Positions 785 to 49,781 of a stretch of DNA of 64,000 nt are shown one piece after another. Under the pieces are notes generated by a model. The model searched no databases, was not told the origin of the DNA, and saw only the letters and a list, made by a program, of their open reading frames with translations. Within the stretch, counting starts at the first letter, position 1; every line of letters starts with the position of its first letter. The stretch comes from a virus, in the IMG/VR virus record IMGVR_UViG_3300042191_000299, positions 1-64,000 of that record; one strand, given 5' to 3'. A program made the translations under genes and the position numbers.

Positions 785-875
785 GTCGCAGCTACGTGGC
801 CGCTGCGCAGGCTTTTCCGTCGAGCAAGATCCTCTGCCAGTCGCGCCAACAAAGCCGGCGCGCAGGCTCTAACCA
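785..875 (-). repeat. two adjacent solitary CRISPR-repeat-like units (785-821 and 840-875) separated by only 18 nt
   Basis: 785-821 matches the array-1 repeat at 29/37 positions. 840-870 is identical to the first 31 nt of array-1 unit 3996-4031. Same orientation as array 1. Lies between convergent genes. Confidence 0.75.
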
Positions 876-879
876 GCGA

Positions 880-1503
880 TCACGCTACCATGGCCGAGGC
901 GGCGCGGACACCGTCGAGGAACTTCGCCATCGGGAAGTGGGGTCCGGGGTCGGTGTGCTTGCTCAGCCCGAACGCTTCGGTGACGGCCGCGTGCGTGGTG
1001 ATGCCCCGCCCCTTTGCACGGAGCCCCGCTGCGTCCACGAACGAAATGGGCAGCATCCACCGACGGCAGATGCCGGCTGACAGCTGCGCAGCTCGCGACA
1101 GCACCGCCAGGCTGTAGGCGTCGTCCCACTCCTCGGGCGTCTGCCGTGCGCGGCCACACAACTCGATGCCGATGCCGTTGTGGTTGGCGCCCGGCGCGTG
1201 GAAGGCGATGTCCAGCTCGCGCACGGACTGAGTGATGGAATTGTTGTCGACGCAGTAGTGCCAGGATACTTTTCGCGGTTTCCCGTCGGCGCCAACCGGA
1301 CCTGCGTGGCACCGGCGCATGAGCGACTCTGCTGCCACCGACGACTCGCCAACCTCGGCGGTGTGCAACACGATCAGGTCAACGACGGTGCGGGGGCCTA
1401 GGCGGTACCACTTCGCAGGTAAAAATGGAATGTCCAGCACGCCTAACGATCGTAACTGCGGGGCAGGGGCAAGGTCAAACGGGTCTCTCGTCGGATCAAC
1501 CAA
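880..1503 (-). CDS. N-acetylmuramoyl-L-alanine amidase (amidase_2/PGRP-type endolysin)
   Basis: Motifs DLIVLHTAE, WHYCVD, GIELCG and KHTDPGPHFP are typical of zinc amidase_2. The listed start is TTG; GTG at 1440 is equally possible. Confidence 0.8.
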   Translation of the reverse strand: MVDPTRDPFDLAPAPQLRSLGVLDIPFLPAKWYRLGPRTVVDLIVLHTAEVGESSVAAESLMRRCHAGPVGADGKPRKVSWHYCVDNNSITQSVRELDIAFHAPGANHNGIGIELCGRARQTPEEWDDAYSLAVLSRAAQLSAGICRRWMLPISFVDAAGLRAKGRGITTHAAVTEAFGLSKHTDPGPHFPMAKFLDGVRAASAMVA

Positions 1504-1755
1504 GCCGATCCGCGGGCACTATCTACCAATGTGCCAGCCGGGGGTGTCTCGAACACCGACGGGAGCATCGAGATGGCCAGCAGCGCCGCCCGCAGAGCGC
1601 CTTCAGAATCCGTCGAGCGGCATTGTCTACGTCGACAGGGCGCGGCCCGTTGCTGTCCTTGTCCACCTCACGTTGGATGTAGATGAACGGCTTGCCATCC
1701 CGCTGGATGTTGCGGCTGCCGTACGGCGCAGTGAATCGACATGCTCGTTTTGCCC

Positions 1756-2289: not shown

Positions 2290-2631
2290 TCATTTCGTCA
2301 GTTTGTAGACGCCGATGCCCAGCCCCAACGTCGCCAGGGCCATGCCCAGGCCGAGCCAAATCTTCTCGGGAATGATACCCATCGCGGGCCCCTGCAGCGA
2401 CGGCGTCATCAGCCCTTCGCCCACCGCGCACTTGCGGGAGATGGCCGTGTGCACGGCGGCGATCTTCTTGTGCACCGCGCGCGCCAGCGACGGCTTGTTG
2501 GCGGTGGCCTGCGAATAGGCGTCGAGTCCGGCCCACGCCTGCACGATGGTCTGCTGGGCCACTTGGCAATTCCCGGCGGCCAGTGCCGCCTTCGCGTAGT
2601 TCACCGCGGCCAGGATCTCTGCTCGCGTCAC
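2290..2631 (-). CDS. hypothetical protein with C-terminal TM anchor (lysis-cassette candidate)
   Basis: GTG start overlaps the upstream stop (GTGA). C-terminal IWLGLGMALATLGLGIGVY. Confidence 0.5.
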   Translation of the reverse strand: MTRAEILAAVNYAKAALAAGNCQVAQQTIVQAWAGLDAYSQATANKPSLARAVHKKIAAVHTAISRKCAVGEGLMTPSLQGPAMGIIPEKIWLGLGMALATLGLGIGVYKLTK

Positions 2632-3920: not shown

Positions 3921-4390
3921 GTCGCATCTTCTAAGCCGGTGCGCAGGCGCTGTGACTTTGTCCTTCGCGATAGCCCCGCCAAGCTCATGAATCACGTCGC
4001 GCCAACAAAGCCGGCGCGCAGGCTCTGTGACTCGACCACCGGAACCCTTCCGCGAGCGACGAGACGGTAGTCGCACCAACAAGGCCGATGCGCAGGCTTT
4101 TGAGACCGTAATCCCAGCCAGCAGCTCGTCGAGCGTCGGCGTGTCGCACCAACAAGGCCGATGCGCAGGCTTTTGAGACATGGTGCAACCATCATCCCGG
4201 CGTTGTGCTTGTGTCGCACCAACAAGGCCGATGCGCAGGCTTTTGAGACACAGACGCAGGAGTTCGACGCCTACTCGCAGGCGTCGCACCAACAAGGCCG
4301 ATGCGCAGGCTTTTGAGACTCTACTTTCTTCGCGACACCACCAACGACAGATGGTCGCACCAACAAGGCCGATGCGCAGGCTTTTGAGAC
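3921..4390 (-). CRISPR. CRISPR array 1: 7 units (5 identical 37-nt repeats plus 2 divergent 36-nt distal units), 6 spacers of 33-39 nt
   Basis: Repeat GTCGCACCAACAAGGCCGATGCGCAGGCTTTTGAGAC at 4070, 4143, 4213, 4283 and 4354. Divergent units at 3921 and 3996. Spacers at 3957-3995, 4032-4069, 4107-4142, 4180-4212, 4250-4282 and 4320-4353 are all unique. The degenerate end is distal to the effector gene. Confidence 0.93.
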
Positions 4391-4440
4391 CTACCCCATA
4401 AAAAGCCGCGTCTTATTCAGCTATTGAGTTGTCAATCGCG
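4391..4440 (-). promoter_or_regulatory. CRISPR leader (relatively AT-rich), homologous to the array-2 leader
   Basis: Minus strand reads ATTGACAACTCAATAGCTGAATAAGACGCGGCTTTTTATGGGGTAG. This is about 80% identical to 49527-49573 and lies in the same position relative to the first repeat. Confidence 0.65.
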
Positions 4441-4481
4441 CGAACCCCCCGAACGCCACCACCGTAGGCGGCGGCCAGCAC

Positions 4482-6170
4482 CTACGTTCGCGCGCCGTTC
4501 TTTGCACTCAGCGCCAGCAGATTGTTGCACGCGTTCAAATCTTGATCGCGTACACGCCCGCATGCAGCGCACGTGTGCATGAGCTGCGACTGATCCCATG
4601 TATCCTCACAGCCACATTCGTCGCAGCGCCGCGTGGTCATCGCCGGGTCGAGCTTGACGAATGTGCGCCCGAGCTTCCTGGCTGTGTCGATCAGGGCTAT
4701 CCGCAGTTCGTGCGGAGATCCCATCATCCGCCAGTATCGCTCGGCGTTCGGAACGGGTGCGTCTTCCGCCTTTGGCTTGGCCGCAAACTTGCGCAGGTCG
4801 AAGTCCTCCAGCACCAGCGTGTCGTACCGGGCAAGGAGCGTGCGCGCAAACATGCGGTAGAAATCCAGCCGGCGCGCGAGCGCCTTCTCACGCTGGTTGA
4901 TCGACCAGTCGCGGTAGTGCCAGAAACGCCGAACGCGCCACTCGTTGAGCGGCGAGAAGATCGCTTCGTCACCAGCGAACCGGTTGTCCTTCCACCACCA
5001 CACCGCTGATGACAGCCGTTTCGCGTTTCGCCACTGCGCCAGGTTCTCCAGACGCGCCGCGTGCTCGGGGGGCAGCGTGTTGGCCTTAGCCCAGGTGACC
5101 AGCTCGCCCCGCATCTTCTCGAACCAGTGGGTCTCCACACCTAACAACTGCGACGGGTAGTCCAGGGCGGACAGAAGCTCGTTGTCGAGTCGCACCTCCC
5201 CCTCGTTTCCCTTGTCGTCCTTCCAGTACGCCACGCGCAGGCCGCCGTTGCCCTTCTCGGCGACACGCCATCCGAGGTCGAGCGCCACACGGCCTTCGCC
5301 AGCAGCCACGGCTTGAGCAAACTCGCGGGACTCCACCGTGATGTGCAGTTCGTACGCCCAGGCGCGTCCGCGGCGCCAGCGGTACAGCCACGCCCACATG
5401 ATTTTCGCATCGTCCGGCAGCGGTCGATGGACGACAGCCGTGAACGTCACCCACAGCGGATCGCGTCCGACCGAACCGGCGCGGAGACTGCATTCAGCCA
5501 AATACTTGCCGCGCGACCGTCGCGTGCCGGGCAGCTCCCGCATACGAAAACGCCGGTCGCCCGCAAGCCGCGCCACGGTCATGCCCTTCTGGATCTGCAC
5601 AGCGATGCGCCCTTCGCCCGTGCGTGGCTTATGCCGAGGGTCCATCAGGGCCTTGCGCTGCTGCTCGGCTGCCTTCTCGCACACCAAATATGTGCCCCAG
5701 TACAGGTCCGACGCTGCGCGCTCTTCGATGATGCGCGCGTGGTGCCGCGCCTCAATTTCGTCCAGCCGTGCCTTGGTGGGGGGATCTGCTGCAGCTGCAG
5801 ATCGTTCCGCCTTCCAGGCTTTTCGCGCAACAGCGAGCTGCGCCTTGGCCTCTTTGATCGTCTGGCGCGTCTCGGCCGTCATCGTGCGCTTGCGTGCGGC
5901 TGCGTTGGCCTCGCGTGCTTGCTTGTATAGCGTCTCCACCGTCGCCTCTTCCCGGGCCACCCGCTGCCCTATCTCGATAACAGTAGGGGCCTCGTCGAGC
6001 ACGGCGCGAACGGCAGTGCGCCGCTCCAGCTCCAGCGTGACGAGCTTGGTGCGGTAGTCATCCGCCTTGCAATACTGATCGTCGGCGAGGGCTTGCCCTT
6101 CGGTGATGCCGCGGGGGTGGACACCGTAGACGTAGATGCGTGTAGGAACGGACGACGTTTTTCGCTTCAT
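4482..6170 (-). CDS. cas12: miniature type V CRISPR effector (TnpB/Cas12-like RuvC nuclease), 562 aa
   Basis: ATG 6170 overlaps the upstream stop (ATGA); the longer 605-aa listing adds a Pro/Arg-rich N-terminus. RuvC-I VALDLG (D298), RuvC-II LVLEDF (E455), zinc ribbon CDECGC..HTCAACG, RuvC-III RDQDLNACNN (D544). N-terminal strand IYVYGV plus a long helical insert. The array begins 91 nt downstream. Confidence 0.85.
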   Translation of the reverse strand: MKRKTSSVPTRIYVYGVHPRGITEGQALADDQYCKADDYRTKLVTLELERRTAVRAVLDEAPTVIEIGQRVAREEATVETLYKQAREANAAARKRTMTAETRQTIKEAKAQLAVARKAWKAERSAAAADPPTKARLDEIEARHHARIIEERAASDLYWGTYLVCEKAAEQQRKALMDPRHKPRTGEGRIAVQIQKGMTVARLAGDRRFRMRELPGTRRSRGKYLAECSLRAGSVGRDPLWVTFTAVVHRPLPDDAKIMWAWLYRWRRGRAWAYELHITVESREFAQAVAAGEGRVALDLGWRVAEKGNGGLRVAYWKDDKGNEGEVRLDNELLSALDYPSQLLGVETHWFEKMRGELVTWAKANTLPPEHAARLENLAQWRNAKRLSSAVWWWKDNRFAGDEAIFSPLNEWRVRRFWHYRDWSINQREKALARRLDFYRMFARTLLARYDTLVLEDFDLRKFAAKPKAEDAPVPNAERYWRMMGSPHELRIALIDTARKLGRTFVKLDPAMTTRRCDECGCEDTWDQSQLMHTCAACGRVRDQDLNACNNLLALSAKNGART

Positions 6171-6406
6171 TTGAGTACCTCGGTTAGAAGGGTCCGGAGC
6201 GCGTCCAGGCGCGCGGTTGGAAACTCCGTGACGCACTCGTTGCGTGAGATTTCGTGGTCTGTGCTGCACAGCCGTCGCAGCGACCGGAAGATGCGGCACG
6301 CGGCGACCTTCACTTGGTCACGCGTGCCGTGGCGCAGATCGTCCATGTCACCAGCGATCAACTCCTCGCGCACGCCGAGCTGGTCGAGCAGCTGCGCGAG
6401 CGTCAC
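6167..6406 (-). CDS. small helical protein, paralogue 3 of 3 (C-terminal LLTEVLK)
   Basis: 79 aa. ATGA overlaps at both ends. Shares its C-terminal motif with the two upstream ORFs. Confidence 0.6.
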   Translation of the reverse strand: MTLAQLLDQLGVREELIAGDMDDLRHGTRDQVKVAACRIFRSLRRLCSTDHEISRNECVTEFPTARLDALRTLLTEVLK

Positions 6407-7350: not shown

Positions 7351-8216
7351 CCGGGCACGCTTTCGTTGGGCAGGGACATGCGGTAGGACCGCCACCCGGT
7401 GAGCTTGCCCACACGCTCGTCCGTCGCCAGCGCCTGCGCCACATGCTCCCCAGGTGCCGCGTGTGGCGGGTCCTGCACGATCAGTTTGTCGTGCAGCGCG
7501 ATGTCTTCGCGAATGTCACGCTTCCCGGCGTGTGTCAAGTAGCTCACACGTGCAGCTCGCCCGACGGCAATTTTGACGAGCAGCGCGTTGTGGGCGGCAC
7601 GCTCAGGCTCGCGGTGAATGCGCACACTCGGATCGATGAGCCCCCAGACGGCATTTCGATCCTCCGTCTCGATGAACGGCAGATGCCATTCGCCCGCCGC
7701 CAACTTCAGCGGCACCGATGCCTCCTTCGCGGCGCGCATCATCCGTGCGATCGTCTGGAAGTGTGGCTCTGCAGCCTTGTGACACCGGAGCGCCCACAGG
7801 TTGTTCCAGTCTGTTGCTGTGAAAATGACGGTGATCCACATCCACGGCTCAAGCAAACGATTCGTGACCTGCTTCGCAACTTCCAGCGCCATCATTCCTC
7901 GGGCGTGCTCCACGGCACTGTCACGGGCGCTCAGCCACATCTTGATGGCCTTTTCTCGCGCCTCCCCTGTCAGCTCCTCTTCGGCCTGCATGCCCTTCTG
8001 GGCCTTACCGATGTGGTCGGGGATGAACGGATCTTCCAGCACCCGCTGAATCATCTTCTCGATTGGGATCGCCCGCGAGCTGGCCGACGACCGCGATAAC
8101 GCACAGTGCGTGAGCAGCTCGGAATGGATGATCCGCGGATACGTGGCCACGATGGTGGTGATCCTCCTGCCGCTCGGGCCGATCGAGTCGGCAATTACTT
8201 TCGCTGAAAATGCCAT
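7347..8216 (-). CDS. thyX: ThyX-like FAD-dependent thymidylate synthase homologue
   Basis: Starts at MAFSAKV. HSELLTHCALSRSSASSRAIP resembles the ThyX RHRxxSxxxxSxR block, but HC replaces HR. Confidence 0.65.
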   Translation of the reverse strand: MAFSAKVIADSIGPSGRRITTIVATYPRIIHSELLTHCALSRSSASSRAIPIEKMIQRVLEDPFIPDHIGKAQKGMQAEEELTGEAREKAIKMWLSARDSAVEHARGMMALEVAKQVTNRLLEPWMWITVIFTATDWNNLWALRCHKAAEPHFQTIARMMRAAKEASVPLKLAAGEWHLPFIETEDRNAVWGLIDPSVRIHREPERAAHNALLVKIAVGRAARVSYLTHAGKRDIREDIALHDKLIVQDPPHAAPGEHVAQALATDERVGKLTGWRSYRMSLPNESVPG

Positions 8217-8957: not shown

Positions 8958-9713
8958 TCACTCCTTCATTGTTGGGTCGAGCGGCCCCTCGACAACTCGT
9001 TGGGCCACGCAGTATCGGCAATGCGGGTCATGCACGTGGTGCTCCTGGCACACCCACGGCAACGGCGGCAGCTCCTCGACTTCAATTCCACCCACCGCGG
9101 CCGTCACTGCCTCTACCGCCGCCTCGGGGTTGAACCCAGTGAGCAGCGCGGCCGCTTCCTTGTCGTCGCCCCCCGCGTACACGCGCCTCGCGCGCTCGGT
9201 CACCGCCACCTTGGCCTGCTCGGCCGGTGTCAGCTTGCGCGAGATCGCCACCGCCTGCTCGGTGTAGTTCGCGTCTTGCCCCGGCTCCCGGCCGCCGATG
9301 GTGTTGTGGATGTAGCAGAAGCGCGACGGTGGCACGAAGCACGCCAGGCCCACCCCCCCGCCGGCCAGGCCGAGACGCAGAAACTGCCCCACCTGCACCG
9401 CGTTCATTCCGTCGAAGCCGCGCACGCCCAGGTGATGGAACACGCCGGTGCAGCCGAGCTTGGCAATGTCGCCGCCGGTGTGGCATTCGCAGGCGAGAAG
9501 AATGCGCCGCACGCGCATTGCTGAGGCGGCGCGTGCTTCGGCCGTAGTTTCGTTCAGGCCAAACGTCATGCGCTCAATCAGCCGCTGGTCACTGACCACA
9601 GCGCGTCCGTTTTCGAACGTGACGACCAGTTCCTTGTCCGGATCAGACGGGCGCACCGGCTGGTGGGCGATTCGGGGCTTGCGCTTGAACAGACGGGCGA
9701 TGAACTTGAACAC
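8958..9713 (-). CDS. hypothetical protein
   Basis: 251-aa ATG ORF with balanced composition and Cys/His-rich ends. Confidence 0.55.
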   Translation of the reverse strand: MFKFIARLFKRKPRIAHQPVRPSDPDKELVVTFENGRAVVSDQRLIERMTFGLNETTAEARAASAMRVRRILLACECHTGGDIAKLGCTGVFHHLGVRGFDGMNAVQVGQFLRLGLAGGGVGLACFVPPSRFCYIHNTIGGREPGQDANYTEQAVAISRKLTPAEQAKVAVTERARRVYAGGDDKEAAALLTGFNPEAAVEAVTAAVGGIEVEELPPLPWVCQEHHVHDPHCRYCVAQRVVEGPLDPTMKE

Positions 9714-18308: not shown

Positions 18309-19274
18309 CTACACGGGGGGCGTGAACCCGGGACCGCCCGGAAAACCCGGGAAGGCGGAGCCAGCAGCGGGCGCCGGAGCACCGTTGGTGGGCTGCGTGA
18401 CCGCTTGCTGCGGTTGTGCCATCTGCTGCTGCTGCGGTTGTGCCGGTGGCGTGAACGTGAACCCGCCAGCTTGTGCCTGCACCGGCGGGGTTCCCGCAGG
18501 TGCAGGCGGCTGTTGGAATGTCTGCTGCTGGGGAGGCGGCGACGCAAAGCCTTGCTGCGGCTGCATCGGTGCGGCAGCTTGCGGCGCCGGTGCGAATGCT
18601 TGTGTTTGCGGGAACCCCGTCGGCGCAGCCGGCGCCCCCGGCAATCCCCCTGCCATTCCCGGAAATGCCGGCGGCAACCCACCAGGCAGCGCCCCAGCAG
18701 ATCCCGGAGCACCCGCGTTGTTTCCGCGTGGCTTCGGTGTCCAGCGGTGGCGCTTGCTGGCCACAGCCTGCTCGTATTCCTCCTTGGAAACCCACGCGTC
18801 TACGCCCGTGCGCATGCCGCCGCTGTCGTCGCTGTACGCCGCAGTCCGAAGCCAGCACAGCTGCTGTGCGAACATCCCCGGCGTGTACCGCATTGCCCCC
18901 TGCGCTGCCTGCATGCCTCCGATCGAGCGCATCAGGGTGCGCCACGTGAACCACGTGTCCTTCTTCGTCCCCCGCGGGTCGGGCAGCAGCTTGGAGACGC
19001 TCTTCCCAGCAACATCCTGGTCGAGCAACTCGACAGCAATCCACACGCCCTTTTGCTCGACGAATTTCTCCGAGCGGATCCGCGCGGCGTAGTAGCCGTC
19101 CATGTCGAGGACATCGGGAATGTCCATCGGCTGCCAATTCGGATCGGCGGGAATGTCGAGCACGAATCCTGCGCTAGGACCGCCCATCATCGGCGCCCAC
19201 GCCTGCTGTCCTGGTACCATCTGACCGCCCGGCATACCGGGGGTCATTCCTGGGAATCCACCTGAAAAACTCAT
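18309..19274 (-). CDS. hypothetical protein with P/Q/G-rich C-terminal tail (SSB-like role suggested only by position)
   Basis: ATG 19274 preceded by AAAGGAG. 321 aa. Sits beside the Sak4-like ATPase. Confidence 0.55.
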   Translation of the reverse strand: MSFSGGFPGMTPGMPGGQMVPGQQAWAPMMGGPSAGFVLDIPADPNWQPMDIPDVLDMDGYYAARIRSEKFVEQKGVWIAVELLDQDVAGKSVSKLLPDPRGTKKDTWFTWRTLMRSIGGMQAAQGAMRYTPGMFAQQLCWLRTAAYSDDSGGMRTGVDAWVSKEEYEQAVASKRHRWTPKPRGNNAGAPGSAGALPGGLPPAFPGMAGGLPGAPAAPTGFPQTQAFAPAPQAAAPMQPQQGFASPPPQQQTFQQPPAPAGTPPVQAQAGGFTFTPPAQPQQQQMAQPQQAVTQPTNGAPAPAAGSAFPGFPGGPGFTPPV

Positions 19275-27091: not shown

Positions 27092-27128
27092 ATCGCACCA
27101 ACGAAGCCGGTGCGCAGGCGCGATTCAC
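27092..27128 (-). repeat. solitary CRISPR repeat unit (sense to local transcription)
   Basis: Minus strand reads GTGAATCGCGCCTGCGCACCGGCTTCGTTGGTGCGAT. 27 consecutive nt are identical to the array-2 repeat. It fills the gap between the HerA-like stop (inside the unit) and the next start. Confidence 0.8.
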
Positions 27129-30302: not shown

Positions 30303-30372
30303 GAGAGTCAGCCCGCAAAATTCAAGTGCGCACCGTAGCCGACGGGTTGAGGTAGTCCCCCACCAGCGCCCC

Positions 30373-30401
30373 TTGACACGCGCCGCGCGTTGCCGCATCA
30401 T
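30373..30401 (+). promoter_or_regulatory. candidate sigma70-like promoter giving a near-leaderless HTH mRNA
   Basis: TTGACA-N17-CATCAT, ending 6 nt before ATG 30408. Confidence 0.4.
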
Positions 30402-30407
30402 TTCGCC

Positions 30408-30656
30408 ATGTCGCCCGCCGAAAACGCGCCCAATCCAATCGGGGCGGAGATCCGCCGGCTGCGTGACTCGCTCGGGATGACCCTGCAGGATTTCGGGCGC
30501 CACGTGGAGATCCCGTGGCAGACGATCCAGGCGTATGAAGGCGGTCGCGCGGTGCCGCCGGCGACGCGGCTGCTGCTGATCATGCACGCCACCCGGCGCG
30601 CGAAGGAACCGTTCCGCGTGGCGCCGGTAGCTCGCGCTGTGGCGTTGGCGGCTTAG
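30408..30656 (+). CDS. XRE/Cro-CI family helix-turn-helix regulator
   Basis: IGAEIRRLRDSLGMTLQDFGRHVEIPWQTIQAYEGG. The listed TTG at 30390 is an alternative start. Confidence 0.8.
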   Translation: MSPAENAPNPIGAEIRRLRDSLGMTLQDFGRHVEIPWQTIQAYEGGRAVPPATRLLLIMHATRRAKEPFRVAPVARAVALAA

Positions 30657-30685
30657 AGCCTGCGCACCGGCTTTGTTGGTGCGAC
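30650..30685 (+). repeat. solitary CRISPR repeat unit (sense to local transcription)
   Basis: AGAGCCTGCGCACCGGCTTTGTTGGTGCGAC matches the array-2 repeat at 30/31 positions. The HTH stop codon TAG lies at unit positions 5-7. Confidence 0.8.
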
Positions 30686-39186: not shown

Positions 39187-39203
39187 GGCGTTTTTCCTTT
39201 CGA

Positions 39204-39221
39204 CTGCCAGTTATACAGCAA
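39204..39221. promoter_or_regulatory. 18-bp quasi-palindromic motif, copy 1 (CTGCCAGTTATACAGCAA)
   Basis: One of 5 near-identical intergenic copies (NTGC-CAGTTANNNN-RCAR). On the minus strand it contains TATAAC about 30 nt upstream of ATG 39186. Confidence 0.6.
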
Positions 39222-39292: not shown

Positions 39293-39960
<668 letters not shown>

Positions 39961-42038: not shown

Positions 42039-42056
42039 TTGCCAGTTATACAGCAA
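42039..42056. promoter_or_regulatory. 18-bp quasi-palindromic motif, copy 2 (TTGCCAGTTATACAGCAA)
   Basis: Minus strand reads TTGGCG-N17-TATAAC upstream of ATG 42021. Confidence 0.6.
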
Positions 42057-42241
42057 CTGGTATGCCGCGCCAAGTTCCTCGATCGTGGCCACTTCGCAGC
42101 ACCGGTGTGCCGTTTTGGTGTCGCCGGATCGCCACACCCGATGCACACGCGCCACACACGTCGCGGTGCGCCATGAAGAAAAAGCTTGTCAGCCCACCTG
42201 TTAGTCGTGGTATGAGTTTGGCATCGAGGGCTTGATGCCGA

Positions 42242-42259
42242 TTGCCAGTTAACTGACAA
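42242..42259. promoter_or_regulatory. 18-bp motif, copy 3, variant (TTGCCAGTTAACTGACAA)
   Basis: Lies 17 nt upstream of ATG 42276, followed by the conserved RBS block. Confidence 0.5.
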
Positions 42260-42275
42260 GGAAGGAAAAACGCCA

Positions 42276-43450: not shown

Positions 43451-44788
43451 GTGGCGAAAGCGGCCATGTCGCCACGTCAGAGAGTCGGCGTAGCCGTTGC
43501 GCGCATCACCGATCCGGGCACCGGCTACGCCCCATACTTCGGCGCCATGCTACGGGGCTTCGTGCGCCGCGAGATGTCCGCCGAGATGGAAGCGGCCATG
43601 AACGCCGTGGGGCTGATGCCGTCAATGGCGGTGTCAGCGGACGGGATCCTGTTCTGGTCGCCGACATTCGTCATGGAGCGGTCGATCGGCGAGCTGGCCT
43701 TCGTGCTCATGCACGAGACGATGCACGTGGTGCTCAAGCACTTCAGCCGCGCGAAGGCGCTGGGCGTGACGCCGGAGCGCCAGGCGCTGGCGAACATGGC
43801 GCAGGACGCGTGCATCAACGAGGAACTGCGGAAGGGCTGGCCGCACTTGGGCAAGGAAGGCATCTACCCCGAGTCGTTGGGGCAACCGCTGGGGCTGGTG
43901 TTCGAGGAGCGTTACCGCCGGCTGCTGCAGGAAAGGGCGAAACAAGACGGCGGCGCGGCTGACGGTGGTGGTGAAGGTGGTGCCGACAAAAAGCAGGGCG
44001 ATGGCCCGGGGCGCGGATGGTGTGGCAGCTGCGCCAACCATCCTGTGCCCGGGGAGGCACCCCCGGGCAGCAGCCGCGACGCGCGGTCAGAGGCGGAGAT
44101 GGAACGCTTTCGGCGTGAGACGGCCCACGCGGTGAAGGCGCAGTCCAACAAGGGACGGGGCATCGTGCCGGACAGCCTCAATCGATGGGCGGACCAGATG
44201 CTGGCGCCCCCCGTGGTCGACTGGCGCACGAAGCTGGCCCGGTCGGTGCGCGCCGCGGTGTCCTACCGACCGGGTGCGGTGGACTTTGCCTGGACGAAGG
44301 TGTCACGGCGCCAGGCAGGAATCGGCTACGGGCCGGGGCGCCCGATCGTACCCGGGTTCCGCGCACCGGTGCCCCGGGTCGCCTGCATCGTCGACACATC
44401 AGGGTCAATGGGCGAGGTCGAGCTGACGGCGGCCGCGAGCGAGCTGCAGGGAGTGCTGGGGGCGGTGGGCGCCGACGTCACGGTGTGCACGGTCGATGCG
44501 GCGGTGCACGACCTGCAGCAGGTGTCGTCGATTCAGGCGGCGTGCGCGCTGATGAAGGGCGGCGGGGGAACGTCGATGACCCCTGGGTTCGAGGCGCTCG
44601 CCAAGCACCAGCCGCGCTCCGAGGTGGTTATCGTGCTGACTGACGGTGAGATCGGCGATGGCTACCCTGCAGTCGAACCGGCGTGGTGCAAGACGATCTG
44701 GTGCGTGGTGGGGAGCTACGCCGGCGATCCCTGCCCGTGGGGTGAGACGATCCACATTGAAGAGCAGCACGCGCAGGAGGCAGCGTGA
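43451..44788 (+). CDS. VWA-domain protein with N-terminal HExxH (DUF2201-like) domain
   Basis: MHETMHVVLKH. MIDAS motif CIVDTSGSM. VVIVLTDGE. GTG start (alternative ATG at 43466). Confidence 0.8.
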   Translation: MAKAAMSPRQRVGVAVARITDPGTGYAPYFGAMLRGFVRREMSAEMEAAMNAVGLMPSMAVSADGILFWSPTFVMERSIGELAFVLMHETMHVVLKHFSRAKALGVTPERQALANMAQDACINEELRKGWPHLGKEGIYPESLGQPLGLVFEERYRRLLQERAKQDGGAADGGGEGGADKKQGDGPGRGWCGSCANHPVPGEAPPGSSRDARSEAEMERFRRETAHAVKAQSNKGRGIVPDSLNRWADQMLAPPVVDWRTKLARSVRAAVSYRPGAVDFAWTKVSRRQAGIGYGPGRPIVPGFRAPVPRVACIVDTSGSMGEVELTAAASELQGVLGAVGADVTVCTVDAAVHDLQQVSSIQAACALMKGGGGTSMTPGFEALAKHQPRSEVVIVLTDGEIGDGYPAVEPAWCKTIWCVVGSYAGDPCPWGETIHIEEQHAQEAA

Positions 44789-44970
44789 AGCCTCTCGTCA
44801 AAAAGCTCGAACGCGCGCTGGCCAAGCTGCCGGGCACGGAGGGCCGCAAGATCGCCCGCCGCAATGCCCGGCAGCGCGTTCTGGCTGCACTCCGTGCCGT
44901 GCGGGCACACGTGGACCGTGAATTCCCTGCGATCGTGGCGCGTAAGGGGGGGCACACATCGTACGGTTGA
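44785..44970 (+). CDS. hypothetical small basic protein
   Basis: 61 aa. GTGA overlap with the VWA gene stop. Confidence 0.45.
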   Translation: MKPLVKKLERALAKLPGTEGRKIARRNARQRVLAALRAVRAHVDREFPAIVARKGGHTSYG

Positions 44971-45199
44971 CCAGCGCCTAGCACACCTCAGGCGCAAGGG
45001 GTGGGTCCAAAAAGACGCCCTCTTTGCGGCGCGCTACGCTGCGGTAGGTGTGCCCATTCGTAATATCGGGGGCGACCTGTTCGTGCCTGGTTGGGCCCAC
45101 GCGATCGGCTACAACAAACAGACCGAGCTGCGCGCCGCCAAGCGCTCTGTGAAGGCGCGCAAGGCAGCGCTCGCGACGGCAGCCCTTTTGCAGACGTAA
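44918..45199 (+). CDS. hypothetical protein (start uncertain)
   Basis: Frame of the listed ORF 44864-45199. The first plausible start is GTG 44918, overlapping the previous ORF. Its stop lies inside the solitary repeat. Confidence 0.4.
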   Translation: MNSLRSWRVRGGTHRTVDQRLAHLRRKGWVQKDALFAARYAAVGVPIRNIGGDLFVPGWAHAIGYNKQTELRAAKRSVKARKAALATAALLQT

Positions 45200-45229
45200 G
45201 AGCCTGCGCGCCGGCTTCGAAGGCGCGAC
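45194..45229 (+). repeat. solitary CRISPR repeat unit (sense to local transcription)
   Basis: GAGCCTGCGCGCCGGCTTCGAAGGCGCGAC. Paired A>G / T>C changes keep the hairpin CGCGCC/GGCGCG. The stop codon TAA lies at unit positions 4-6. Confidence 0.75.
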
Positions 45230-45280
45230 CGTGAATGGACTAGTTACCGAACCTGAATCCCAAACAAAGGAAAAACGCCA

Positions 45281-46186
45281 ATGACCACCACCGCCACTCC
45301 CGCCACTGTTCAACGCGATTACCTCGTCACGCCAGAATCCGTCGCCACTGCCGGCGCCATAAGTTATTGGCGTCTCAGCGGTGCAATCAATTTGGCTCGG
45401 CTCAGCGCCGCCTGGGGTACCCAGTCCCTCGACCCCAAGCTCCTCCCCACCCCTCCCGGAGACGAGGTGGCGCTGGGCCGAGCCGTTCGTGACCAGGCAG
45501 AGCGCCGCCGGCTCGTGCGACCACTGGAAAAGCGCGGCGCGTGGGCCATCGTGGCGGAGACTGCCAAAGATGATCGCATCGACTTCAAGACGCTGGCGCG
45601 CGTGTACTACGACAAGCCCGAGGGATCGGAGATCGGCACGCCGCGCTTCGTTCGCGAAGAGGCCACGTCGGACATGTACGAGGCGCTGGTCACGAACATC
45701 CGCGGCGCCTACGAGCGCCACCGCGGCGAACTGGAGTCGAACGACATCTCCGGGTGGCTGGTCAAGCTCGGCTATCGCCTGGACGTCGTGGCGCTGCGGG
45801 ACACTGGGGGCATCTACTTCGTGCCACGGCAAAACGTCGACATCTGGCGGCGCGTCGTTGCGGCCATCGAGAGCGTCAGCAGCCATCGGGTGTTCAAGAT
45901 TCCAGCGCTGCGCAACAGCGAGGCGATCGAGGCCATCACGGAGGCGGTCACGGCCGAGGCGGTGGCGATCGTCGACCGACTGGAGGCCGAGCTGGCGCTG
46001 ACCGGCGACGACGCGCTGGGTGACAGGGCGCTCAAGACGCGCGCCGCCGAATGCTCTGCATTGTTGAGCAAGGTGAACGGGTACGAAGCGCTGCTCGAAT
46101 CGCGCCTGGTGGTGGCCGAGCGTGTGCTGGCGCTGCAGGGCACGCTGGCCGCTGCGACGCTGATGCAAGGCGACGACATCGAGTAG
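45281..46186 (+). CDS. hypothetical protein (third gene of the MoxR-VWA block)
   Basis: 301 aa. Conserved 21-nt RBS/start block identical to that of 42276. Confidence 0.6.
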   Translation: MTTTATPATVQRDYLVTPESVATAGAISYWRLSGAINLARLSAAWGTQSLDPKLLPTPPGDEVALGRAVRDQAERRRLVRPLEKRGAWAIVAETAKDDRIDFKTLARVYYDKPEGSEIGTPRFVREEATSDMYEALVTNIRGAYERHRGELESNDISGWLVKLGYRLDVVALRDTGGIYFVPRQNVDIWRRVVAAIESVSSHRVFKIPALRNSEAIEAITEAVTAEAVAIVDRLEAELALTGDDALGDRALKTRAAECSALLSKVNGYEALLESRLVVAERVLALQGTLAAATLMQGDDIE

Positions 46187-46466: not shown

Positions 46467-46517
46467 CCCCCGACCGGTGTCTGGCGAGATTGGCGTTTTT
46501 CCTTCACCGGTCGGGGG
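46467..46517. terminator. 13-bp-stem hairpin whose loop carries an orphan reverse copy of the conserved RBS block
   Basis: CCCCCGACCGGTG (46467-46479) pairs with CACCGGTCGGGGG (46505-46517). The loop contains the reverse complement of AAGGAAAAACGCCAAT. A weak T-tract follows on the plus strand. Confidence 0.4.
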
Positions 46518-46540
46518 CGACTCCTTTTAGGGGGGTGCGC

Positions 46541-48078: not shown

Positions 48079-48100
48079 ATCATCCACGATACTTGACGGC

Positions 48101-48118
48101 GTGCCAGTTATCCAGCAG
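48101..48118. promoter_or_regulatory. 18-bp quasi-palindromic motif, copy 4 (GTGCCAGTTATCCAGCAG)
   Basis: Lies between the divergent sugar genes and ends 1 nt before ATG 48120. Confidence 0.55.
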
Positions 48119-48119
48119 C

Positions 48120-49397
48120 ATGCGGAGCGTGTCGGATCCACTGTTTGTCGAGCTGAGGGAGAAGATCACGCTGCGCACCGCGCGCGTCGTAGTAGTGGGC
48201 GGAGGATACGTGGGACGGCCGCTGGCTGATGCGTGCGTGGGCGCCGGTTTCCACACGACCGTCTACGATACAAACGAATCTAAGTGCGCGGAGCTGCGCG
48301 CGGTGAACCATCGCGCCGTGACCGTCTCCGCCGTTCTCCGCAGCGCTGATGTGGTGGTGATCTGCGTCCCCACGCCGCTCAACAAGACGAAGGACCCCGA
48401 CAATACGCACGTGCTGGCGGTGGCCGAAGAGCTGCTGGATAACGCGCACGCACCTCGCCTGGTGATTCTTGAAAGCACAACGTTTCCTGGCTTCACACGC
48501 CAGGTGTTTGCCCCGAAGCTGCATCTGTCTATTGCCAACCGTGACTTCGTCGCCTTCTCGCCAGAGCGCACCGACCCCGGCAACGCCGAATACAATATCA
48601 GCAACACGCCGAAGATTGTGGCAGGTGCGGACGAGGAAAGCGCTGGGCTGGCGACGGCGTTCTACGAAGCATTCGTGGAACGCAAAAACGTCGTCCAGGT
48701 CAGCTCCACTGACACAGCCGAGATGGTCAAGCTGCTGGAGAACACTTTCCGCGCCGTGAACATTGGCCTCGTCAACGAGGTGGCGATCATGTGTCGGCAC
48801 CTCAATCTCGACGTGTGGGAGGTGATCGAGGCGGCCGCCACCAAGCCGTACGGATTCATGCCATTCTACCCGGGGCCCGGCATCGGGGGGCACTGCATTC
48901 CCGTGGACCCCCTCTACCTGTCATGGCAACTGAAGACGCTGCAGTACGATGCGCGCTTCATCCAGCTTGCCGACCAGATCAACTCGGCAATGCCGGCGCT
49001 GGTGGTGGACCGCGTGACCGAGGCTCTCAATGGTTTGGGCTTGGCGGTGCGCGATGCGAATATTCTTCTGCTCGGCGTGGCCTACAAACCGGGTGTGGGT
49101 GACGTGCGAGAGTCACCCGCGTTGGAGATTTTGGCCTGTTTTGAGAAACGCGGCGCTGCGGTAGTGTATTTTGATCGGTATGTTGAAAGTGTCACCACGA
49201 AGCGGTATGCGGTACTACCGTCGTGTCGGCGTCTGGACAGCGCCCTGTACGCAGCATGTGCCTGCGCGGTCATCGTCACGGACCACCCCGACGTGGATTA
49301 TGAGGAGATCGTGCGCAGCGTGCCGGTGACGGTGGACTGCCGGAACGCGACGAAGGCATTTCGCGCGAAGTACCCCGGGAAGGTGGTGATGCTTTGA
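48120..49397 (+). CDS. UDP-sugar 6-dehydrogenase family (WbpA/WecC-like nucleotide-sugar dehydrogenase)
   Basis: Rossmann VVVVGGGYVGRPLA, catalytic GGHCIPVDP. 425 aa from ATG 48120. Confidence 0.8.
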   Translation: MRSVSDPLFVELREKITLRTARVVVVGGGYVGRPLADACVGAGFHTTVYDTNESKCAELRAVNHRAVTVSAVLRSADVVVICVPTPLNKTKDPDNTHVLAVAEELLDNAHAPRLVILESTTFPGFTRQVFAPKLHLSIANRDFVAFSPERTDPGNAEYNISNTPKIVAGADEESAGLATAFYEAFVERKNVVQVSSTDTAEMVKLLENTFRAVNIGLVNEVAIMCRHLNLDVWEVIEAAATKPYGFMPFYPGPGIGGHCIPVDPLYLSWQLKTLQYDARFIQLADQINSAMPALVVDRVTEALNGLGLAVRDANILLLGVAYKPGVGDVRESPALEILACFEKRGAAVVYFDRYVESVTTKRYAVLPSCRRLDSALYAACACAVIVTDHPDVDYEEIVRSVPVTVDCRNATKAFRAKYPGKVVML

Positions 49398-49573: not shown

Positions 49574-49756
49574 GTCGCAGAGCCTGCGCACCGGCTTCGT
49601 TGGTGCGACCTCCAGAAGGAGGTCCTGTGTGCGGCGGTACCACCGGTCGCAGAGCCTGCGCACCGGCTTCGTTGGTGCGACCCAGGAACGACGACCAAAC
49701 GCGACTTCACGATCCGAAGGTCTCCAGAGCCTGCACACCTTGACCTCGTGCCAGTT
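49574..49756 (+). CRISPR. CRISPR mini-array 2: two identical 36-nt repeats plus one degenerate terminal unit, 2 spacers (36 and 38 nt)
   Basis: GTCGCAGAGCCTGCGCACCGGCTTCGTTGGTGCGAC at 49574 and 49646. Degenerate unit at about 49720. Spacers at 49610-49645 and 49682-49719. Orientation is opposite to array 1 on the map. Confidence 0.85.
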
Positions 49757-49765
49757 ATCCAGCAA
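49748..49765. promoter_or_regulatory. 18-bp quasi-palindromic motif, copy 5 (GTGCCAGTTATCCAGCAA)
   Basis: Overlaps the decayed end of array 2. Lies 17 nt upstream of ATG 49782. Confidence 0.55.
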
Positions 49766-49781
49766 CATCCCCGGACTGCGA

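Follow-up and report, generated by a model that had tools for sequence, protein, structure and literature searches.

The subject of this study is a 36-nucleotide (nt) sequence (ACGTAAGAGCCTGCGCGCCGGCTTCGAAGGCGCGAC) at positions 45194–45229 on the plus strand of a 64,000-nt stretch of viral DNA, comprising positions 1 to 64,000 of the IMG/VR virus record IMGVR_UViG_3300042191_000299. This whole stretch, which is referred to below as the window, contains a gene for a Cas12m protein together with a CRISPR array, and the 36-nt sequence, which is present only once in the window and is referred to as unit 45194, is very probably a stray single copy of the repeat of this type V-M (Cas12m) system of the phage itself, since its core matches the array repeats that lie beside cas12m. 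The rest of the window is of phage character, with genes for a family A DNA polymerase, for helicases (Dda-like and others), for primase, thymidylate synthase and Sak4, and for an exonuclease and an amidase endolysin. An earlier description of this DNA that was made from the letters alone (the sequence-only reading) had placed a solitary repeat unit at these coordinates, with the TAA stop codon of the upstream open reading frame (ORF) at unit positions 4–6 and the ATG at 45281 located 51 nt beyond it, and all of these statements were borne out. The features of the locus are as follows.

44864–45199, plus strand: upstream ORF, 111 amino acids (aa), no assigned function
45194–45229, plus strand: solitary type V-M CRISPR repeat unit (covariance model 44.9 bits, E 4e-7)
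45197–45199: TAA stop codon of the upstream ORF, within the variable 5' flank of the unit
45202–45206: conserved GCCTG of the unit
45207–45212: 5' arm CGCGCC
45213–45221: loop GGCTTCGAA, 9 nt
45222–45227: 3' arm GGCGCG, pairing with 45207–45212
45228–45229: AC
45230–45280, plus strand: leader of the downstream gene, 51 nt, with a ribosome-binding site (RBS) block from 45267 at its end
45281–46186, plus strand: downstream gene of the DUF6744 family (family match and homologues)

The core of unit 45194 starts 2 nt past the upstream stop codon. The C-terminus of the upstream ORF aligns with its homologues in the phage contigs L129 and L139 and has the same end point, and hence this ORF is considered to be real and its stop codon ancestral. 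On the 3' side, the next bases after the unit are CGTGAATGG and the first approximately 17 nt read CGTGAATGGACTAGTTA. No promoter of the sigma-70 type was found in the region 44500–45500 by a scan limited to that consensus, and a terminator scan called no plus-strand terminator around the unit, which also lacks the T-run on its 3' side that, together with a G+C-rich hairpin, characterizes an intrinsic terminator. Searches of Rfam revealed no family at the gathering threshold anywhere in the window, and megablast of the region from 40 to 52 kb against the PLSDB plasmids and INPHARED phages gave no match.

The sequence family to which unit 45194 belongs is distributed over seven loci in the window, which are listed below (apart from the unit itself) together with the cas12m gene.

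4482–6170, minus strand: cas12m, 562 aa from Met44 of the ORF (Pfam Cas12f1-like TNB; matches to solved structures)
3921–4391, minus strand: main CRISPR array, 7 repeats of 36–37 nt and 6 spacers of 33–38 nt
785–876, minus strand: mini-array, units 838 and 783 around an 18-nt spacer, past the endolysin gene where the minus-strand arm ends
1490–1525, minus strand: solitary unit (1488), stem CGGATC/GATCCG, shortly before the amidase (endolysin) gene
27092–27127, minus strand: solitary unit (27090), directly after the stop codon of a HerA-like ATPase gene, with the next ORF 0–20 nt further on
30650–30685, plus strand: solitary unit, overlapping the TAG stop codon of the first plus-arm ORF (30351–30656)
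49574–49681, plus strand: mini-array, two identical units (49574 and 49646) around a 36-nt spacer, flanked by the genes for UDP-glucose dehydrogenase and a glycosyltransferase

The 28-nt consensus core of this family, when up to three mismatches were allowed, had 6 matches in the window as compared to 0 expected, and a profile hidden Markov model and a covariance model each recovered 15 units (seven in the array, four in the two mini-arrays and four solitary), and a direct-repeat scan recovered the same 15. When the covariance model was run with its filters off, all 15 units scored at least 38.7 bits and the next match only 13.8 bits. The score of unit 45194 lies within the range of the array repeats (40.3–47.5 bits), nothing else between 30685 and 49576 scored above 13.7 bits, and no further unit, not even a degenerate one, is present within 4.3 kb of it. 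Unit 45194 thus has the properties by which solitary repeat units are defined (no full or partial repeat within 100 bp, an intergenic position, and presence in a virus or plasmid). Viral mini-arrays consist of two repeats around one or two spacers, and no second repeat follows unit 45194; the loci at 785–876 and 49574–49681 are of this kind, and a decayed third copy is found beside the latter at about 49723–49738. Each of the seven repeat loci, counting the array, both mini-arrays and the four solitary units, occupies an intergenic position and points in the same direction as its flanking genes. This holds in both of the divergent arms of the window, one of which runs leftward from about 30.2 kb and the other rightward from about 30.3 kb; the switch in GC skew coincides with this divide. 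At all five of the solitary or first units in the window the GCCTG core is preceded, at a distance of 4–15 nt, by the stop codon of the upstream ORF, and the next start codon is found 0–52 nt past three of the four solitary units, with no clear gene directly after unit 30650.

The assignment to subtype V-M is based upon the effector as well as upon the repeat. The Cas12m ORF at 4482–6170(−), whose product as called in public data (P0001) has 562 aa, lies directly upstream of the array in the direction of transcription, and among the proteins of solved structure it matches Cas12m 23vw (E 8.6e-66) and Cas12m2 8hio (E 1e-22). The RuvC residues D298, E455 and D542–D544, corresponding to a D-E-D triad, are kept in its clade. 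Cas12m orthologues are known to require no trans-activating CRISPR RNA (tracrRNA) and to cut CRISPR RNA precursors (pre-crRNA) inside the repeat (PMC11013384; PMC10442227), and they bind DNA without cutting it regardless of whether their RuvC triad is D-E-D, H-D-D or N-D-D (PMC11013384). The handle of the Cas12m2 CRISPR RNA (crRNA) contains a 6-bp helix, C(−22..−17) with G(−8..−3), that is closed by the pair G(−23)·A(−2), and nucleotides −36 to −30 of this RNA are disordered (PMC10442227). The units of the phage, which read GCCTG, a 6-nt arm, a 9-nt loop, a 6-nt arm and AC, are of the same design, and upon comparison of the sequences the G of GCCTG and the A of AC (G45206 and A45228 in unit 45194) occupy the positions of the G·A pair. 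Across the units the block from GCC to AC is conserved and the first approximately 8 nt are free to vary; the former corresponds to the ordered nucleotides of the Cas12m2 crRNA (about −29 to −1) and the latter to the disordered ones, and it is in this freely varying 5' part that the stop codons of the upstream genes fall in the window. As judged from this alignment, the stray units keep exactly the portion that forms the mature 5' handle of the crRNA, namely GCCTG, the 6-bp stem, the 9-nt loop and AC. The likeness to Cas12m2 and GoCas12m consists of a G·A closing pair and a 6-bp helix whose end is separated from the guide by two bases, and the dispensable 5' segment of the repeat, the self-processing and the independence from tracrRNA of these proteins are counted here as a likeness to the V-M family (PMC10442227; PMC11013384). 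The differences are that the loop has 9 nt in the phage units but 8 in Cas12m2, and that the phage effector, in whose clade the D-E-D triad is kept, is distant from Cas12m2, its best solved relative being 23vw.

The sequence-only reading had also noted that the stem of unit 45194 (CGCGCC/GGCGCG) differs from CGCACC/GGTGCG in a manner that keeps the pairing, and had taken this as an argument for selection upon RNA structure rather than upon DNA sequence. The difference itself is correct: the stem CGCACC/GGTGCG is present in units 27090, 30650, 49574 and 49646, from which unit 45194 departs by one A-U to G-C exchange. However, CGCGCC/GGCGCG is also found in the array repeat 3994(−) and in the mini-array unit 838(−), the cores of which are identical to each other, and because these two units share the double mutation it does not constitute independent evidence; it was probably inherited by copying and represents one event at most. 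Within the main array, the five leader-side repeats have the stem CGCATC/GGTGCG and the terminal repeat 3919 contains one mismatch, which is the only stem mismatch among the units of the window; in the eight units outside the array all 48 of the 48 pairs are intact in four versions of the stem.

What can be upheld of this argument concerns the family as a whole. An alignment was made of 40 units from the window, from the contigs L001–L008 (viral contigs found by the repeat pattern), from the genome bins L058, L060 and L108, and from the arrays of the Cas12m relatives L129 and L132, nearly all of these loci being in phage contigs. In this alignment the helix was paired in 98.3% of cases, changes had occurred on both sides in six of the six pairs with 16 extra pair types, and the covariation score was 0.679 compared to 0.196 ± 0.028 for shuffled data, a value that none of 500 shuffles reached. 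When the partner strand was slid by 1–3 columns the pairing fell to 23–55%. At least 12 different stems are represented, including CGCACC, CGCGCC, CGCAGC, CGGATC, CGCAGG, CGCGGC, CGCACT, CGCAGA, CGGGAG, CGAGAG, CAGGAG and CGGAGG. Selection upon a folded handle across the repeat family is thus well supported by the covariation. The further claim that this selection operates at the level of RNA is only partly upheld: a folded structure is indicated, but a folded single-stranded DNA form of the unit may serve as an alternative to a role in RNA, and the orientation of the units does not separate the two, because transcription and GC skew agree. In isolation, unit 45194 folds into a predicted hairpin of −12.1 kcal/mol. 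As a separate observation, the coding sequence TGAAGGCGCGC at 45150–45160, 45 nt upstream, is able to pair with 45206–45219 (the 5' arm and loop), which may be due to chance in this G+C-rich sequence.

Covariation could not be followed at the site of unit 45194 itself, since this site is unit-free in L129, L138, L139 and L141, and a metagenome scan added only one homologue. The block consisting of the AAA ATPase, DUF2201, small ORF and DUF6744 genes is syntenic in the phage contig L129, whose Cas12m is 53% identical, and homologues of the DUF6744 gene with their upstream sequences are also available in L138, L139 and L141. This gene is separated from the one before it by 26 nt in L129, by 49 nt in L139 and by 81 nt in the window. 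The bases that directly follow unit 45194 (GTGAATGGAC...) are homologous to the leader in L138 (GTGAACGGATAC...), and for this reason the sequence at 45230–45280 is regarded as a native leader and not as an acquired spacer. The RBS and start 21-mer AAGGAAAAACGCCAATGACCA is, as had been reported, identical at 42262 and 45267. However, the link that was proposed between the unit and this conserved block is not supported, as the block AAAGGAAAA(A)CGCCA(A)ATG stands at the start of four genes of the window and also precedes the DUF6744 homologue in the unit-less L129 and L138, with a close variant (GAAAGGGAAAACGCCAAAATG) ahead of the ATPase gene in L129. Because unit-less relatives keep the RBS block, the comparison of these loci indicates that unit 45194 is a recent, lineage-specific insertion; the block is an independent and older leader motif whose association with the unit is seemingly coincidental.

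Similar units are present in other phages. Although a query of IMG/VR with the single Cas12m protein found no relatives, a profile query then gave 65 contigs (L142–L206), many of them of 100–200 kb, and in many of these the covariance model detected arrays downstream of cas12m. In a 2026 preprint a V-M system in a myxophage was worded as a "first report", with no mention of stray repeats; since 65 IMG/VR contigs encode Cas12m relatives, Cas12m in phages is far from unique, contrary to that wording. Dispersed units recur in several Cas12m phage contigs: L174 has a solitary unit at 18594(−) after the end of an ORF and a cluster of units at 9337–9710, L187 has a separate mini-array at 7778/7850, and L132 has separate units at 6003–6207. 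The repeats of L132 (11811–12218 and 6003–6207) and L174 (9337–9710 and 11842–12824) differ mutually and yet each is still paired, and the spacers of their arrays are short, down to 12–20 nt, with an overall range of about 12–47 nt; these arrays look fixed (crRNA-like or decoy) rather than adaptive. In addition, a scan of GTDB with a degenerate repeat pattern gave 120 loci. Almost all of these are isolated matches that arose by chance in genomes of high G+C content, and only L058, L060 and L108 are real family members. The nearest cellular hint at a host is a Micropruina genome bin, in which an array of near-identical repeats lies next to an integrase and a Cas12-like ORF.

The phage contigs L001–L007 contain units at most of their gene-module boundaries, and comparison of two of them, L006 and L002, which are 98% identical, provides information on the turnover of the units. 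In L006 units follow RusA and are also found ahead of the terminase genes and past the gene of the large terminase; in addition, they flank on both sides the gene at 4478–4780, whose product is an RNA-binding protein with an RRM domain (Pfam RRM_1, E 1e-12). At 4797–4844 of L006 there is a 48-nt insertion, consisting of ATGGATA, a 36-nt unit and ATGCA, that is absent in L002 (at about 2855); the flanks are 100% identical in the two contigs, and ATG is found at both junctions of the insertion. A second single-unit insertion of about 44–47 nt is located before position 4438 of L006, a 1.2-kb cassette of this contig (3229–4437; L002 2435–2500) is bounded by units, and in an exchange of flanks between L006 and L007 the breakpoint is within the core of a unit. 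Independent assemblies of the phage of the window (L135, L136 and L137; Logan SRR35147663) also end at units, namely at the main array, at 785–876 and at about 49650, so that three of the six contig ends examined in L135–L137 fall on a repeat locus. From these alignments, the units are seen to be gained and lost as discrete pieces of about 48 nt and to act as recombination breakpoints and cassette boundaries.

The sequences that follow the units, which could serve as guides, provided few matches. For the stray units no seed match of at least 9 nt was found elsewhere in the window, the best match of the prefix CGTGAATGGACTAG... being 8 nt, which is at the level of chance. A search of INPHARED with all spacers and guides gave nothing convincing; a 22-nt match to the Gordonia phage Powerball (E 0.6) was rejected, as it is marginal and begins at guide position 14. 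Among the array spacers and stray guides, the only notable self-match in the window is that of array spacer 2 (GCCTGCGAGTAGGCGTCGAACT..., 4250–4282(−)), which agrees at 19 of 20 positions with 2507–2526(+), inside the ORF 2290–2730(−), and has the 5' flank GGTG. This spacer could be directed against a relative's copy of the gene; its 19-mer is also present in four unrelated IMG/VR contigs and may be little informative. An 8-nt seed of the sequence downstream of the terminal repeat, near the 5' end of cas12m (6317), was likewise rejected: the site is inside the preceding gene, which overlaps the start of cas12m, and the same 8-mer occurs eight times in the window.

The reading of these observations that we prefer, to which we assign a probability of about 0.45, is that unit 45194 acts as a handle within the mRNA of an operon that is bound and probably cut by the Cas12m of the phage, leading to punctuation or regulation in cis. 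As neither a promoter of the sigma-70 type nor a terminator of its own was found for the unit, which lies inside a run of co-directional genes, 2 nt past a stop codon, it would be transcribed as part of a polycistronic mRNA. Its hairpin would fold and be bound by Cas12m, which would cut the repeat on the 5' side of the handle, as Cas12m orthologues do with pre-crRNA; here the cut would fall on the stop codon or immediately past it. The cut would separate the upstream cistron from that of DUF6744, and Cas12m would then stay on the 5' end of the downstream RNA with the gene's own leader as its guide. Such a guide should be harmless to the phage, because it is the end of the repeat, and not a protospacer-adjacent motif (PAM), that flanks the matching DNA. 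The unit would thereby constitute a cis punctuation or regulatory mark on the operon transcript while also drawing on the pool of Cas12m, and the same scheme could hold for both mini-arrays and for the remaining three solitary units, with the units being accessory and evolutionarily mobile. This reading is supported by the shared strand of the repeat loci and their flanking genes, by the stop codons close before the units, by the intact pairing of the eight units outside the array, and by the recurrence of dispersed units in the Cas12m phage contigs L174, L187 and L132 and at most module boundaries of L001–L007. Several observations weigh against it. Every step beyond the identity of the unit as a repeat copy is inferred; the stability of its predicted hairpin is not above that of shuffled sequence, and in a 151-nt context the minimum-energy fold pairs its 5' arm with 45150–45160. 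One unit of L001/L002 has an uncompensated stem mutation. Because the 5' flank of unit 45194 differs from that of the array repeat, its cleavage may fail. Moreover, since the unit is missing at this site in L129 (which has Cas12m), L138, L139 and L141, and since units vary between 98%-identical phages, any role in cis is dispensable. Lastly, L001–L007 are rich in units while the available sequence of these contigs shows no cas12m, for which a decoy directed at a host system is at least an equally good fit.

Such a decoy function, although itself somewhat unlikely, is the main alternative to the handle reading for unit 45194. Its RNA would in this case resemble the RNA anti-CRISPRs (Racrs) and sequester Cas12m, whether from the host or from rival elements that share this repeat, by giving it a useless guide, and the presence of several units would raise the dose. 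Viral solitary repeat units are an established class, several of which, including some for class 2 systems, act as RNA anti-CRISPRs, and a non-targeting crRNA also lowers interference (PMC10651486). The units of L001–L007 are readily accounted for in this manner, the array and Cas12-like ORF of the Micropruina bin suggest that cellular or integrated V-M systems with a near-identical repeat exist, and the speed with which units come and go among near-identical phages suits an arms race. However, this phage has a matching Cas12m and a 6-spacer array of its own, with whose crRNAs about 8 stray units would compete against 7 array repeats; the sigma-70 consensus scan found no promoter directly upstream; and unit 45194 lies outside any recognizable anti-defence cluster. 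Decay or selfish spread is less probable, and we consider it unlikely that the unit is a functionless copy dropped by recombination of the array, or a miniature mobile repeat, which is tolerated between genes and whose main effect is to provide a breakpoint for recombination, perhaps in the form of a DNA hairpin. The approximately 48-nt indels with identical flanks, the unit-bounded cassette and the breakpoint inside a unit core, the ends of the public assemblies at units, the absence of unit 45194 in relatives, and its stem variant, copied from or common to array repeat 3994 and unit 838, all agree with this possibility. Yet decay should cost pairing, and all eight of the eight stray units are perfectly paired with four stems, including the diverged unit 1488; the covariation across the family is strong, conservation falls on the positions at which the handle is contacted in Cas12m and not on those of just any hairpin, and the version involving a mobile element still requires a factor that recognizes the hairpin.

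A hard-wired guide, in which the unit and the adjacent sequence would form a fixed crRNA that sends Cas12m to a host gene, to the promoter of a cas or toxin gene, or to the locus of a unit-less related phage, is in our view decidedly unlikely. Cas12m silences through binding to DNA (PMC10442227; PMC11013384), examples of crRNA-like regulators (CreR, CreA) and of viral Cracr arrays have been described in types I and V-A, and the cas12m-adjacent arrays of L132 and L174, with their diverged but paired repeats and 12–20-nt spacers, have the appearance of being fixed. However, the sequence after unit 45194 is a native leader with a homologous counterpart in L138, and neither the window nor INPHARED contains a convincing target for it. 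The variant in which the guide of a unit targets unit-less alleles, leading to a TnpB-like retention, is unsupported at the one clean filled and empty site (L006/L002), where the five extra bases past the inserted unit destroy the PAM-proximal match to the empty allele. Finally, the position of a G+C-rich hairpin directly after a stop codon might suggest a factor-independent terminator, or a stabilizer of the mRNA end, that merely resembles a CRISPR repeat. This is highly improbable, as there is no U-run and no call in the terminator scan, the stem has just 6 bp and the loop 9 nt, and the conservation of the loop and flanks with the CRISPR repeat goes far past the needs of a terminator.

A broader form of the handle reading, which we consider rather unlikely, is that the dispersed units make up an operon-embedded system of RNA handles, spread as insertions of about 48 nt, at which a co-opted CRISPR effector of the phage or host cuts, marks or regulates mRNAs at gene boundaries in the manner of the RNase III sites of phage T7. 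In T7, conserved hairpins at the gene boundaries of polycistronic mRNAs are cut by RNase III, and this cleavage has been shown; the comparison is solely one of how the two might work, as the enzyme and the structure differ and cleavage is inferred for the units of the phages discussed here. If this were correct, CRISPR repeats could function as punctuation of gene expression and not as elements of immunity or anti-immunity.

Solitary repeat units, viral mini-arrays and crRNA-like regulators are already known (PMC10651486; PMC11656645; PMC10120712; bioRxiv 10.1101/2024.10.29.618823), and V-M systems have been found on plasmids and some prophages. With the Racrs (Camara-Wilpert et al., 2023, PMC10651486) unit 45194 shares the single intergenic viral repeat copy with a hairpin that is expected to bind the cognate Cas protein. 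It differs from them in that the virus encodes the cognate effector and a full array, in that the genome has four solitary units and two mini-arrays, and in that the unit is inside an operon, 2 nt past a stop codon, with no detected promoter of the sigma-70 type; in the passages of that paper that were consulted, units of subtype V-M are not mentioned. Virus-borne mini-arrays are minimal repeat-spacer elements that use a Cas effector in conflicts between viruses (Medvedeva et al., 2019; PMC11656645), and the window has two of them (785–876 and 49574–49681), but unit 45194 is without a second repeat or an acquired spacer and is followed by the leader of a native gene. The crRNA-like regulators (CreR/CreA, tracr-L, scaRNA and Cracr; bioRxiv 10.1101/2023.03.10.532045; bioRxiv 10.1101/2024.10.29.618823; PMC10120712) are similar in being stand-alone and repeat-like with a fixed guide that turns a Cas effector into a transcriptional repressor, a role to which a Cas12m that only binds would be suited. 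However, they need at least 9 PAM-proximal nt against the promoter of a cas or toxin gene, none of which was found in the window, and they have been described for types I and V-A (type II for tracr-L and scaRNA) and not for V-M. The new aspects of the present units are the subtype V-M together with an effector from the same phage, the embedding of stray units in operons just past stop codons, the exact retention of the mature handle, and the turnover by discrete indels. Solitary CRISPR repeats of viruses are now read as decoys against host immunity, and the present virus has the matching effector itself. If Cas12m acts on these sites, a CRISPR effector would be working on the phage's own transcripts, and the handle would be a natural and compact one for multi-gene RNA processing with a 560-residue protein; if the units are decoys, RNA anti-CRISPRs would extend to subtype V-M with a multi-copy, operon-borne delivery. 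In either case the family provides a covariation series for defining the recognition of RNA by Cas12m.

Some other features of the window were also noted. A quasi-palindromic motif (TTGCTGTATAACTGGCA or TGCCAGTTAACTGACA) is present 3–6 nt ahead of the RBS block that three genes have in common, at 39200–39216(−), 42054–42070(−) and 42243–42259(+), and a related sequence, TTGAC-N4-TGCCAGTTATCCAGCA, lies ahead of two plus-strand genes at 48092–48125(+) and 49739–49772(+). This motif is a candidate phage promoter or operator, and its position beside the shared block explains the recurrence of the leader 21-mer. Downstream of the DUF6744 gene, at 46476–46518, there is a 13-bp perfect inverted repeat (CCCCCGACCGGTG...CACCGGTCGGGGG) with a copy of the RBS block in its loop. 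The region 39300–39716 consists of a long run of triplets of the GGC/GGCGTA type with periods of 9, 12 and 15 nt, which presumably codes for a Gly/Ala-rich repetitive segment of a protein.

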